From a virus (lineage: Duplodnaviria; Heunggongvirae; Uroviricota; Caudoviricetes): a stretch of 4,480 bases of DNA. Position numbers and translations under genes: made by a program. The stretch lies in the IMG/VR virus record IMGVR_UViG_2713896791_000006; one strand, given 5' to 3'. Positions 1-4,480 of this stretch are shown in pieces (the first letter of the stretch is position 1; each line of letters opens with the position of its first letter). The notes beneath the pieces are model-generated. The model did not search any database. It had not been told where the DNA came from and saw only the letters and a program-made list of their open reading frames with translations.

Positions 1-31
1 AATTACCAACCTTAGCTTCGTTGGTTAGCTA

Positions 32-250
32 TTAACGCGGGTATGTAATCATTCTGGCAATGGTTAATGCCGCTGCTTTTTCCAGATTGGTGATATCCTG
101 CTCCAGAGAGGACAGATTTTCAGCCTGCTTAGCCCTGACTTCATTAGCCCATTTCAGATCCTGCGCTGCATTAATTTTCTGGTGCATCCACTCATAAAGT
201 TCATCATTGGTATAGTCTGGCGCGATGATGACGGGTTCTCGTTTCTGCAT
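32..250 (-). CDS. Small hypothetical prophage protein (72 aa), distal gene of the leftward early operon
   Basis: ATG at 250-248 on the minus strand, preceded by GAGGA (RC of 257-261) with a 6-nt spacer; stop TAA at 34-32. It sits directly downstream of the 42-aa ORF in the same orientation. No motif I can recognise. Confidence 0.5.
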   Translation of the reverse strand: MQKREPVIIAPDYTNDELYEWMHQKINAAQDLKWANEVRAKQAENLSSLEQDITNLEKAAALTIARMITYPR

Positions 251-279
251 ACTGATTCCTCGCGGTGCTGTTTCGCTTA

Positions 280-408
280 TCAGCCATTAGATTTTGCCGA
301 ACTGGAAAGCACCTGTTTAAATTCGTTGAAGCTGTGAGCTTCTTCGCCTTCGGCAAGGCCTTCGAAGTATTCTTCGTAAGCCTTTTCCATGATTGTGTCG
401 AAATCCAT
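280..408 (-). CDS. Very small acidic protein (42 aa, MDFDTIMEKAYEEYFEGLAEGEEAHSFNEFKQVLSSSAKSNG); absent from the supplied ORF track
   Basis: Own translation of the minus strand: ATG at 408-406, stop TGA at 282-280. An AGGTGG Shine-Dalgarno-like motif (RC of 414-419) lies 5 nt upstream of the ATG. The upstream ORF's stop and this start are arranged TGAtATG (412-406), suggesting translational coupling. The plus-strand ORF 265-462 is its Phe-rich antisense shadow. Confidence 0.4.
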   Translation of the reverse strand: MDFDTIMEKAYEEYFEGLAEGEEAHSFNEFKQVLSSSAKSNG

Positions 409-409
409 A

Positions 410-658
410 TCACCCACCTGAATTTCTTTCCAGCCAGCGACGCGCTCCAGATTCGGTTTTAAACGTTTTGCTTTTGGTATACGTCATTGCGGTGAACGTA
501 CCGTACTGGTTGGGGAACACGCCACATACCAGAGATTCGCTGTTGCCAAGATCGATAGTATCCATGCTGACCTCATTNNNNNNNNNNNNNNNNNNNNNNN
601 NNNNNNNNNNNNNNNNNNNNNNNNNNNCATAGTTATTAAAGTTGAACCCTGCCGTCAT
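410..658 (-). CDS. First gene of the leftward operon, interrupted by the assembly gap; true length and frame continuity unknown
   Basis: ATG at 658-656 (MTAGFNFNNY...) about 94 nt downstream of the predicted leftward promoter, with GAGG 9 nt upstream. The reading frame enters the 50-N gap (578-627); because the gap length is arbitrary, the N-terminal and C-terminal parts are only artificially joined in the ORF track. The C-terminal part ends at TGA 412-410. Confidence 0.4.
   Translation of the reverse strand: MTAGFNFNNYXXXXXXXXXXXXXXXXXNEVSMDTIDLGNSESLVCGVFPNQYGTFTAMTYTKSKTFKTESGARRWLERNSGG
578..627. other. Assembly/scaffold gap (50 N)
   Basis: Run of exactly 50 N; the flanking sequences are not duplicated, so this is probably a true gap of unknown size. 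Confidence 0.95.
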
Positions 659-758
659 GTTCTTACGCCTCGGGCTGGCTACTTAACCCGTGACCACTGC
701 CTGGTAACTCGAGGTATTGCCCTGTATTGTGTGGGACGGGATGGGTTGGTATGGGAAA

Positions 759-787
759 ACTATAGGAAATGCCTAATTACTTGTCAA
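759..787 (-). promoter_or_regulatory. Leftward sigma70-type promoter (PL analogue): TTGACA, 17-nt spacer, TATAGT
   Basis: On the minus strand: -35 TTGACA (RC of 782-787), 17-nt spacer (781-765), -10 TATAGT (RC of 759-764). Predicted transcription start near 752, reading toward the ATG at 658. Confidence 0.5.
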
Positions 788-895: not shown

Positions 896-1372
896 TTAAG
901 TTCCTGTCTTGGTGATGTTCTGGCTTTTCCGTTTTGATTCTTGATTTTTCAGATAGTTAGCTACCTTCATTTCCATTGCGGCAATGTAGGCGCGAACGTC
1001 ATGATCAACCCAACTAGGCTCCGTAGCATTTCCAGATAAGATGAAAGCCACAATTGCTCTTTTTTCATCAGAGGCGGCTTGATAAAGGCTGTTTATGTCT
1101 AAAAGTTCACTTTTTGTATCTGAAGTGGATGGGGTTGGTATGGGGTATTCGTTAAGCCCCCAATGCTCTGGACCAACCACATCAGAAAAGAAACGCCATA
1201 GTTCTGGAAGTTTGTCTTTACTTATCGAACCTTTCTTAATCCAGTCATGGATTGATGGTGGTTGGACTTTGAAATGACGTGCGATTTCCGCCTTTGATTT
1301 GACGGCTCCTGATGCAATTTTTTTGTTAATGGCCTGCTCTATCGCTCGGCCTAAGTCTTTACCACTAAGCAT
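896..1372 (-). CDS. racR: CI-like helix-turn-helix repressor of a Rac-type prophage (RacR-like, 158 aa)
   Basis: 158-aa ORF with an N-terminal HTH-like segment (KSKAEIARHFKVQPPSIHDWIKKG). ATG at 1372-1370 with AGGAG (RC of 1384-1388) upstream; stop TAA at 898-896. Divergent from a Cro-like gene and followed by ydaT/ydaU/ydaV-like genes, matching the Rac prophage gene order as I recall it; the 158-aa length matches RacR. Confidence 0.8.
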   Translation of the reverse strand: MLSGKDLGRAIEQAINKKIASGAVKSKAEIARHFKVQPPSIHDWIKKGSISKDKLPELWRFFSDVVGPEHWGLNEYPIPTPSTSDTKSELLDINSLYQAASDEKRAIVAFILSGNATEPSWVDHDVRAYIAAMEMKVANYLKNQESKRKSQNITKTGT

Positions 1373-1401
1373 TGCTTAATAGTCTCCTATGCGCATCGCG
1401 T

Positions 1402-1467
1402 TAGGCAATCCCTACTCTCGATGTATTAGGCATAGCCTATTGACAATTTCATTAGGCTAAGCCTAAT
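1402..1467. promoter_or_regulatory. Three operator-like palindromes in the racR-ydaS divergent region (OR analogue)
   Basis: Site 1 TAGGC-AAT-CCCTA at 1402-1414 (one mismatch). Site 2 TAGGC-ATA-GCCTA at 1427-1439 (perfect). Site 3 ATTAGGCT-A-AGCCTAAT at 1451-1467 (perfect 17-bp palindrome). Centres at 1408, 1433 and 1459, i.e. 25-26 bp apart. Sites 2 and 3 flank or overlap the rightward promoter. Confidence 0.5.
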
Positions 1468-1469
1468 AT
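1440..1469 (+). promoter_or_regulatory. Rightward sigma70-type promoter (PR analogue) for the ydaS operon
   Basis: -35 TTGACA at 1440-1445, 18-nt spacer, -10 TAATAT at 1464-1469. GGAG at 1484-1487 then ATG at 1497. Confidence 0.5.
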
Positions 1470-1496: not shown

Positions 1497-1820
1497 ATGA
1501 AAAAAGATAACTATTCATTCAAACGAGCTTGTGCTGTTGTCGGTGGGCAATCAGCAATGGCTAGGCTTTTAGGTGTATCTCCTCCAAGCGTAAATCAATG
1601 GATCAAAGGTGTACGTCAGTTACCTGCTGAGAGATGTCCTGCGATTGAACGAGCAACAAAAGGTGGTGTTCTGTGTGAAGAACTTCGTCCTGATGTTGAT
1701 TGGACATACTTACGACGCTCGTCATGTTATTCGCAGAATATGTCGATGAAGCAACCAAATGACGAAAACGATCATACCCGAAGCATCAAGAGGCAAATGA
1801 TTCATGAAAATCAAACATGA
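1497..1820 (+). CDS. ydaS: Cro-like HTH protein (YdaS-like)
   Basis: ATG at 1497 (MKKDNYSF...) with GGAG 9 nt upstream. HTH-like segment QSAMARLLGVSPPSVNQWIKG. The ORF-track start at 1476 is a GTG extension lying inside the predicted promoter/leader, so I prefer 1497. Position is divergent from the repressor gene. Confidence 0.75.
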   Translation: MKKDNYSFKRACAVVGGQSAMARLLGVSPPSVNQWIKGVRQLPAERCPAIERATKGGVLCEELRPDVDWTYLRRSSCYSQNMSMKQPNDENDHTRSIKRQMIHENQT

Positions 1821-2229: not shown

Positions 2230-2251
2230 AAGCACGGTGTTCGGGGGTTTT

Positions 2252-3214
2252 ATGAGCAGCAAGCTTCATGGTCTTGTCTGGGAAGGGTGCGCCTTCACCG
2301 GCATGATCTTATCCAGGGTGGCGGTTATGGCCCGTCTTGCAGACTACAGCAATGACGAGGGCGTGTCATGGCCTGCCATTGAAACTATCCGGCGTCAGAT
2401 CGGTGCAAGAAGTGAATCCACAGTGAAATCGGCTATTGCAGAACTGGCGAAAGAGGGCTGGCTGACGAAGGAAGAGCGTAAGGTCGGTGGGCGTAATGTA
2501 AGCAATATCTATCGGCTTAATGTGGAAAAACTCGAAGCAGCTGCGGCGGCGGCGCGTGAGTCATATAAACCGAAAAGAAAAATTAGCCCGGCAAAAAATG
2601 ACCCGTTAACAGTTGACCCGTCAAATATTGACCCCTCAACGGTTGACCCGTCAAATTTTGATGGATCAACTGTTGATAAAAAACTGCCGATTAGGGGGGC
2701 GATGATTGACCCCGATCCGTCAGTATTAAAACCTGATCCGTCAGATAAAAGATCTTCTTGTCCGGACGCTTCGCAACCGGACCCGCAGACGGCTGAACAG
2801 GATTTTTTAACCCGACACCCTGACGCGGTTGTGTTCAGTGCGAAAAAACGCCAGTGGGGAAGTCAGGAAGATTTGGTGTGCGCACAGTGGATCTGGGGAC
2901 GAATCGTGAGTCTTTACGAGCAGGCGGCCAGCGATGATGGCGAGATCACTAGACCGAAAGAACCCAACTGGACAGCATGGGCCAATGACGTTCGCACAAT
3001 GCGGATGCTGGATGGCAGAACTCACAGACAAATTTGTGAAATGTTTGGGCGTCTCCAGCGGGATTCGTTCTGGGTAAAAAACATCATGAGTCCGGCAAAA
3101 CTCCGGGAAAAATGGGATGAACTGGTTATCCGCCTGGGGCGTTCGCCTGCGCAGCGTTGCGTGAATCACATTTCTGAACCGGACACTGAAATACCGCCGG
3201 GATTCAGGGGGTGA
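2252..3214 (+). CDS. ydaU: Replication initiator-like protein (YdaU-like): N-terminal winged-HTH, pentapeptide-repeat linker, DnaT-like C-terminal tail
   Basis: ATG at 2252 preceded by GGGGG (2243-2247); the track start at 2237 is GTG. N-terminal segment RLADYSNDEGVSWPAIETIRRQIGARSESTVKSAIAELAKEGWL resembles a winged-helix DNA-binding domain. The C-terminus ...VNHISEPDTEIPPGFRG closely resembles the C-terminus of E. coli DnaT as I recall it (...VNTVSEPDSQIPPGFRG). Sits immediately upstream of the DnaC-like gene. Confidence 0.8.
   Translation: MSSKLHGLVWEGCAFTGMILSRVAVMARLADYSNDEGVSWPAIETIRRQIGARSESTVKSAIAELAKEGWLTKEERKVGGRNVSNIYRLNVEKLEAAAAAARESYKPKRKISPAKNDPLTVDPSNIDPSTVDPSNFDGSTVDKKLPIRGAMIDPDPSVLKPDPSDKRSSCPDASQPDPQTAEQDFLTRHPDAVVFSAKKRQWGSQEDLVCAQWIWGRIVSLYEQAASDDGEITRPKEPNWTAWANDVRTMRMLDGRTHRQICEMFGRLQRDSFWVKNIMSPAKLREKWDELVIRLGRSPAQRCVNHISEPDTEIPPGFRG
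2598..2687. repeat. Tandem 15-bp iteron-like repeats (core TTGAC-CC-GTCAA) inside ydaU
   Basis: Units at 2598, 2613, 2628, 2643, 2658 and 2673: atgacccgttaacag, ttgacccgtcaaata, ttgacccctcaacgg, ttgacccgtcaaatt, ttgatggatcaactg, ttgataaaaaactgc. Each good unit has the inverted arms TTGAC/GTCAA. They encode pentapeptide repeats VDPSN/IDPST. Confidence 0.55.
2706..2754. repeat. Second repeat pair (GATCCGTCAG followed by A/T-rich tract) with clustered GATC sites
   Basis: GATCCGTCAG at 2714-2723 and 2736-2745, each followed by tattaaaa / ataaaag. GATC at 2664, 2714, 2736 and 2751, i.e. four sites in about 90 bp. Confidence 0.4.
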
Positions 3215-3985: not shown

Positions 3986-4480
3986 GATGGAAACTGTATT
4001 GCATGCACTGAAAGCGATGGGAAAAGCCAATTCTGTTGAACTGGCGGCGCGGCTTGATATCAGCCGTGAAGAAGTTCTTAACGAACTGTGGGAACTCAAA
4101 AAAAATGGCGTTGTTGATAAAACGGGTCACACCTGGTTTCTGGCTGTCGAAGGTGANNNNNNNNNNNNNNNNNNNNNNNNNNNNNNNNNNNNNNNNNNNN
4201 NNNNNNTCAAAAAAAATGGCGTTGTTGATAAAACGGGTCACACCTGGTTTCTGGCTGTCGAAGGTGAAGCCGGGGTAACCGAAGGGCAGGCACTACAACC
4301 TGAAGCGCCGGATGTGGTAACCGAAGAGGTCGCTCCAAAAGTTACCGCAGACATGATGGTTGAGTTTATCGGTCAGGATGGTGCTAAAACGTGTGAGGAA
4401 CTGGCGGGTAAGTTCGGCGTCAGTACTCGCAAGGTTGCTTCCACGCTGGCGGTGGTAACCGCAACGGGGCGGCTGGCACG
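3986..4480 (+). CDS. Hypothetical protein with two winged-helix-like segments; partial (runs off the window) and interrupted by an artefactual gap
   Basis: ATG at 3986 with GAGGTAAA (3973-3980) upstream: [57 protein letters not shown]... The frame resumes after the gap at 4209 ([28 protein letters not shown]...[35 protein letters not shown]...) and is open to 4480. Could be a YdaW-like gene, but I cannot confirm this. Confidence 0.5.
4096..4267. repeat. 61-bp exact direct duplication (4096-4156 = 4207-4267) across the N gap; probable mis-joined overlapping contig ends
   Basis: Both copies read tcaaaaaaaatggcgttgttgataaaacgggtcacacctggtttctggctgtcgaaggtga. Removing the gap and one copy restores a continuous in-frame ORF. 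Confidence 0.85.
4157..4206. other. Assembly/scaffold gap (50 N) flanked by duplicated contig ends
   Basis: Run of exactly 50 N; the 61 bp before and after are identical. Confidence 0.95.

Follow-up and report, generated by a model that had tools for sequence, protein, structure and literature searches.

The window (the whole stretch of viral DNA analyzed, 4,480 nt) carries the repressor gene racR and, divergent from it, a ydaS-like gene and an open reading frame of the YdaT type:

896..1372, minus strand: racR, 158 aa, with an N-terminal helix-turn-helix domain and a C-terminal oligomerization domain
1497..1820, plus strand: ydaS-like gene, the Cro analogue, 107 aa
1804..2229: open reading frame that matches Pfam YdaT_toxin

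The racR product scores 246 bits against the NCBIfam RacR equivalog NF049929 (cutoff 200) and is 91% identical to K-12 RacR across all 158 aa. It matched no Pfam family, hence no S24 peptidase domain was detected, and a sequence search of the PDB found no relative or solved structure. The product of 1497..1820 matches the Pfam families YdaS_toxin (3.8e-30) and P22_Cro (1e-8) and is 85% identical to K-12 YdaS. Both gene names used in an earlier note on this DNA, racR and ydaS, are therefore correct. The helix-turn-helix sequences of RacR (PPSIHDWIK) and YdaS (PPSVNQWIK) are alike (pairwise E = 2e-6), which makes shared use of half-sites plausible. RacR was described as having a CI-like N-terminal domain with a recognition helix at residues 38-47 and a C-terminal oligomerization domain of unrelated fold (PMC11014345). 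Codon 43 (1244-1246), within this helix, encodes histidine here and tyrosine in K-12; the operator arms are the same in both prophages despite this difference.

Positions 700-1900 are 100% identical to a chromosomal lambdoid prophage of E. coli 2011C-4251, a human isolate. Identity is ~98% for prophages of O157:H7 and strains related to it, and 87% for K-12-type Rac. Most of this interval is present in 1085 of 5426 complete E. coli genomes. The annotated order in 2011C-4251 is integrase, excisionase, exonuclease, dicB, ydfC, DUF1391, and racR, and divergent from racR are a helix-turn-helix gene, a YdaT-family gene, a replication-initiator-like helix-turn-helix gene, and a DnaC-like ATPase gene. 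The prophage is a mosaic of Rac-type immunity and Qin-like leftward early genes (window 1-660 compared with 1-1400 of locus L001), and the homology breakpoint falls within the leader of the leftward transcript.

Two runs of N, at 578-627 and 4157-4206, are scaffold joins. The first stands where the identical genome has 38 bp. A 61-bp duplication (4096-4156 = 4207-4267) borders the second, so the two contigs overlap at their ends and no true gap exists there. Open reading frames across the N-runs (e.g. 410..658) are artefacts, and DUF1391 really occupies 410..565 on the minus strand. The replication-initiator-like gene (2237..3214) contains five to six tandem 15-bp repeats (2578-2676, consensus approximately TGACCCGTCAAATAT) that look like origin iterons, comparable to the lambda origin within gene O.

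Operator sites between racR and ydaS

A motif scan of the window for TAGGCNNNGCCTA, with at most one mismatch allowed, gave five matches compared with 0.04 expected, a count reached by none of 200 dinucleotide-preserving shuffles. Three lie between racR and ydaS, and the remaining two are at 763-775 and 788-800. The sites and promoters between the two genes, including a weaker palindrome on the racR start codon, are:

1366-1378: fourth right-operator (OR) site, TAAGCATTGCTTA, centered on the A of the racR ATG (1372), two symmetric mismatches
1381..1408, minus strand: predicted leaderless racR promoter (PracR3 analogue), -35 TTGCCT at 1408..1403, 16-nt spacer, -10 GAGACT at 1386..1381
1402-1414: site 1, TAGGCAATCCCTA, center 1408, one mismatch
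1427-1439: site 2, TAGGCATAGCCTA, center 1433, perfect, in a position analogous to lambda OR2
1440..1469, plus strand: ydaS promoter from the promoter scan (PydaS or PydaST, the PR analogue), TTGACA, 18-nt spacer, TAATAT
1453-1465: core of site 3, TAGGCTAAGCCTA, center 1459, perfect, in a position analogous to lambda OR1

The interval between centers is 25 bp for sites 1 and 2 and 26 bp for sites 2 and 3. Relative to the racR ATG, in racR orientation, the OR centers are at -87, -61, -36, and 0. Site 3 extends into a perfect 17-mer, ATTAGGC-TAA-GCCTAAT (1451-1467), and region 1381-1500 contains the sequence gcgTTAGGCAATCCCTActctcgatgtaTTAGGCATAGCCTATTGACAAtttcaTTAGGCTAAGCCTAATATTgttgcg. The 3′ end of site 2 is one base upstream of the PydaS -35, and site 3 is inside the PydaS spacer with a 2-bp overlap with the -10. 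With the ydaS start assumed ~7 nt past the -10 (1464-1469), site 3 is centered at ~-17 and site 2 at ~-43. The earlier note had placed three TAGGC-N3-GCCTA palindromes, one of them imperfect, at 1408, 1433, and 1459, with the last two around the -35 and over the spacer and -10 of a rightward promoter. All of its coordinates and spacings are exact, and the promoter scan agrees with the geometry.

On the racR strand, site 1 reads TAGGGATTGCCTA and includes TTGCCT, the -35 of the predicted racR promoter. The same scan of K-12 gives TTGCCT-16-GAGAAT, so the racR -10 is one base weaker here (GAGACT). The -10 of K-12 PracR2 falls within a linker that is not conserved here. The assignment of the racR promoter in the window is a prediction that rests on primer extension in K-12. 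The fourth site is identical to its K-12 counterpart, operator O3, which was reported on the racR ATG with its sequence given as ACTAAGCATTGCTTAAT (PMC9638921). The restriction-modification regulator C.Csp231I also has its off-target box, CTAAG-N5-CTTAA, on this palindrome.

The operators are a rediscovery of real and functional elements, known from the literature since 2017 and footprinted in 2022. Krishnamurthi et al. (2017) described three palindromes in K-12 and likened the operators to those of lambda (PMC5700373). The 123-bp racR-ydaS region gave three RacR complexes by EMSA as well as ChIP enrichment, a 49-bp fragment with one repeat gave a single complex, and RacR represses the ydaS promoter (PMC5700373). 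Primer extension found one ydaS start and three racR starts, with -10 boxes confirmed by mutagenesis, and the racR mRNA is leaderless (PMC9638921). The TTGACA-18-TAATAT ydaS promoter was mapped by primer extension and -10 mutagenesis (PMC9638921, PMC11879457). In the DNase I footprint the ydaS promoter is covered at the lowest RacR dose and the racR promoter region at higher doses; the consensus was given as (T/A)TAGGC-N3-GCCTA(T/A), with ATTAGGC as the motif of a RacR monomer (PMC9638921). Later papers in NAR by the same group (2023, 2025) describe four inverted repeats or operators (PMC11014345, PMC11879457).

The window and K-12 Rac have in common the consensus, the four positions from the racR ATG, the TTGACA-18-TAATAT promoter, and every arm base. 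They differ in the linkers and in N3 (TAA here and GTC in K-12 for site 3, ATA here and ACA in K-12 for site 2), and the perfect 17-mer of site 3 occurs in the window and not in K-12. The leftward operon also differs, being Qin-like here (DUF1391, ydfC, dicB) and composed of ydaG, ydaF, sieB, and kilR in K-12. The window shows these features of a RacR operator set: the consensus repeat, divergent racR and ydaS, overlap with PydaS, an orthologous repressor, and positional orthology.

The three palindromes and the ATG palindrome very probably make up the OR of this immunity region, bound by RacR. We predict physical binding of RacR to these sites from the EMSA, ChIP, and DNase I footprint in K-12, and site 3 is the predicted highest-affinity site. 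The behavior of K-12 RacR is expected of this allele as well, by transfer from orthology and the identical arms. Repression of ydaS and autoregulation of racR, both proposed in the earlier note, are supported by the experiments on the K-12 orthologue, whose operator arms are base-for-base identical. RacR is not the sole control of the ydaS promoter in K-12. This promoter is reported to have almost no activity in vivo even when RacR is missing, and it is also subject to OxyR, YdaT, and a reverse promoter (PMC11879457).

Predicted left operator pair and leftward promoter

The two other matches to the operator motif accompany a predicted leftward promoter:

759..787, minus strand: PL analogue, TTGACA, 17-nt spacer, TATAGT, 11 of 12 consensus positions
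763-775: OL-like site B, TAGGAAATGCCTA, one mismatch, in the leftward spacer and overlapping the -10
788-800: OL-like site A, TAGGCTATGCCTA, perfect, abutting the leftward -35

The PL analogue is the best promoter of the region in the promoter scan. It is directed toward DUF1391, ydfC, and dicB. Sites A and B lie ~100 bp past the racR stop codon, are 25 bp apart, and have the same geometry relative to the promoter as sites 2 and 3 at PydaS. The 23 nt at 781-803, TTGTCAATAGGCTATGCCTAATA, recur perfectly in inverted orientation at 1424-1446, a segment that comprises the site 2 module and the -35 hexamer. An OL/PL module would be expected in a lambdoid phage, and we predict that this one is functional.

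The OL pair, its spacing, and the adjoining TTGACA are kept in K-12, E. ruysiae, Mixta, Proteus, an unclassified Pseudomonadota metagenome-assembled genome (L008), and Klebsiella phage KpF5. Every locus that has the pair keeps the 25-bp spacing. In KpF5 it is 1.9 kb from the repressor start, past an inserted DUF450 gene. The N3 triplet is nearly fixed at OL site A, as at site 2, and varies freely at site 3.

Leftward Rac genes of K-12 rise 40- to 100-fold on RacR depletion (PMC6765115, PMC11014345, and a 2026 bioRxiv preprint). The derepressed genes in the published transcriptomes are ydaG, ydaF, ydaE, kilR, racC, recET, xisR, and intR. A RacR-controlled PL predicts exactly such a rise, and the conserved OL/PL pair offers a direct account of the derepression of kilR, recET, xisR, and intR upon loss of RacR. 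The searchable literature (older subscription work on sbcA/recE was outside reach) yielded no description of a Rac OL/PL, the evidence there being from transcriptomes. An OL/PL equivalent was described for prophage CP-933P (PMC8630535). The predicted fold of the 125-nt leftward leader is no better than that of shuffled sequences (z = 0.44). A search of Rfam at E <= 1 gave two sub-threshold matches, both elsewhere in the window.

Conservation of the operator sites

Genomes in IMG/VR and GTDB gave a set of 40 distinct OR sequences of the E. coli type. Variation occurs in 3 of 40 arm columns, each time as a rare variant, compared with 33 of 66 columns of N3 and linkers (Fisher p = 5e-6, which is descriptive and no strict test because the 40 sequences are related). 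The arms appear to be under strong purifying selection, with everything between them free to vary. At position 5 of site 1 nearly all 40 variants have G, T, or A and hardly any has C; homologues from other genera have A or T there. The mismatch is thus itself conserved, which suggests a tuned lower affinity. The linkers at 1415-1426 and 1446-1452 are hypervariable among otherwise 98-100% identical prophages (e.g. ATGAAAT, ATGCAAT, ATACAAT, ATGCGAT, ATATTAT).

Distances from the racR ATG are conserved in Escherichia, Mixta, Klebsiella, Proteus, Achromobacter, Nitrosomonas, and Klebsiella phage KpF5. The genera other than Escherichia, and KpF5, have three OR sites, at ~-60, -35, and 0 (within 1-2 bp). 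The -35 site of these loci adjoins the TTGACA of the divergent promoter, and the non-E. coli homologues have no equivalent at the distance of site 3 from racR. Their ATG site is TAGGCAATGCTTA, with one mismatch. Repressors of Pseudomonas phages resemble RacR in the N-terminal domain only (52-55% identity), and in these phages TAGGCAATGCTTA is retained at the ATG and AAGCCATTGCCTA at -36.

The E. coli-type OR has an additional 25-bp unit (site 2 and a linker) that is absent from loci L007-L013 and L095. The layout with three sites appears to be ancestral and is widespread across Proteobacteria. A 25-bp unit matching the OL module seems to have been inserted in the E. coli lineage, bringing OR there to four sites. 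The 23-nt inverted copy points to a duplication, or a gene conversion, that involved OL and OR. If true, one site that served both promoters was replaced by separate sites for the lytic and repressor promoters.

One locus (L005, JARKOR010000130.1) is a 5.2-kb contig binned as 'Candidatus Nanosynbacter' with a K-12-type racR region. In both its 91% match to the query and its operator sites it equals the two E. coli loci, and it is almost certainly E. coli contamination of the metagenome bin.

Repression model and comparison with known systems

We propose that each TAGGC-N3-GCCTA dyad would be occupied by a RacR dimer through the N-terminal helix-turn-helix. The closest consensus matches, sites 3 and 2, are placed on the spacer/-10 and the -35, so they would be filled first and would block RNA polymerase at the strong promoter of ydaS-ydaT. 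Site 1, which holds the predicted racR -35, and the ATG site, which would cover the leaderless start point, would be occupied at a higher repressor dose and limit racR transcription (negative autoregulation). Since both are at repressing positions, they fit negative autoregulation better than an activation of the kind that lambda OR2 exerts on PRM. The OL pair, the counterpart of sites 2 and 3, would silence the leftward early operon through the same repressor.

Adjacent sites are 2.4-2.5 helical turns apart, which puts them 137-171 degrees out of phase. For such neighbors to cooperate, the repressor would have to be flexible between its domains, like lambda CI, and the published RacR model includes a flexible interdomain linker (PMC9638921). 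Cooperative filling of neighboring sites is likely, judging from the lambda-like spacing and the reported oligomerization of RacR, which is an octamer on size exclusion (PMC11014345). The octamer may also bridge OL and OR around racR, unlike the published model of four OR sites being filled. We regard it as rather doubtful that the whole of this extended proposal holds, namely a working OL pair, an octamer that loops OL to OR, and an OR site gained by a 25-bp insertion.

The right operator alone adds little. It identifies again, outside K-12, the RacR operators that silence a Rac-type prophage, including its toxic genes ydaS-ydaT. Possible additions are the conserved OL/PL pair, octamer looping across 0.64 kb, and the evolution of OR from three to four sites.

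The locus has much in common with lambda: divergent genes for a repressor and a Cro-like protein, dyad operators ~2.4 helical turns apart, two sites at ~-17/-43 of each early promoter, a leaderless repressor mRNA, a predicted left operator set on a leftward early promoter, and an octameric repressor. It differs in having four OR sites and two strong OL sites with 13-bp cores and 5-bp arms, in autoregulatory sites on the -35 and the start codon rather than at -42 and -18, and in a repressor whose C-terminal fold is distinct and has no S24 peptidase signature. Operators in lambda OR are spaced 23-24 bp, and lambda CI loops OL to OR over 2.4 kb; the OL-OR distance here is ~0.64 kb.

The comparison with OR1-OR2-OR3 made in the earlier note stands for the geometry at PydaS and gives way in the number of sites and the role of YdaS. 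We consider it unlikely that the region is a strict copy of lambda, in which exactly three operators are present, the middle one activates racR, the third shuts it off, and YdaS binds in the reverse order. Two operators ~24 bp apart (centers 1459 and 1433) do lie at ~-17/-42 of the lytic promoter, where lambda PR has OR1 and OR2, the 25-26 bp spacing is close, the K-12 racR mRNA is leaderless like that of cI, and the helix-turn-helix motifs of RacR and YdaS are similar. However, E. coli has four sites, the racR-proximal one on the ATG, and the other genera have three with the third on the start codon. Site 1, at -36 with the -35 hexamer, is in a repressing and not a -42 activating position. 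No LexA/CI-type S24 peptidase C-terminal domain, the kind that cleaves itself under RecA stimulation, was found for the repressor in Pfam, the PDB, or the literature. K-12 YdaS reportedly does not repress racR (PMC9638921), unlike Cro, which leaves the lambda analogy incomplete.

It is very improbable that the palindromes are bound chiefly by YdaT (the CII analogue) or YdaS instead of RacR. K-12 YdaT does footprint over the ydaS -35 and -10 (PMC11879457), the YdaS helix-turn-helix is like that of RacR, and the footprints of YdaS and the repressor overlap in CP-933P (PMC8630535). However, the YdaT box, TTGATT-N6-AATCAA, is unrelated to TAGGC-N3-GCCTA, and the K-12 authors found no palindrome in the intergenic part that YdaT protects (PMC11879457). 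For RacR, binding to these repeats was shown directly in K-12 by footprints and EMSA (PMC9638921, PMC5700373), and across genera the sites follow the RacR-type N-terminal domain even where the divergent gene is different. Use of the operators by YdaS as well would be compatible with binding by RacR and does not compete with it. There is hardly any probability left for chance matches or for dead relics that a local duplication left behind as the prophage decayed. Duplication does seem to have shaped the region, given the 23-nt perfect OL copy of the site 2 module and the extra 25-bp E. coli unit that is missing from other genera. The shuffles (0/200), the near-invariant arms set against hypervariable linkers, the fixed positions across distant genera and a sequenced phage, and the direct binding in K-12 all argue against chance or relics, and the conservation pattern and the published footprints already refute that reading.

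The sole YdaT-box-like match in the window is outside the operator region, at 1797-1814, and YdaT was rejected as the binder. This match, ATGATTCATGAAAATCAA, has one mismatch and lies over the ydaT start codon and the end of ydaS. Its position is that of the K-12 box that activates the reverse racR promoter, and its occurrence is not above chance (67/200 shuffles).

Prophage CP-933P of E. coli O157:H7 has the same ydaS-ydaT right arm, with four equally spaced palindromes that separate the repressor gene from ydaS and an octameric repressor (mBio 2021, PMC8630535). It differs in the specificity of its repressor PaaR2, which is unrelated (half-site GTTTAGTAA in 18-bp palindromes), in having a toxin-antitoxin pair in the repressor operon, and in the activation by PaaR2 of its own promoter at low dose (PMC8630535).
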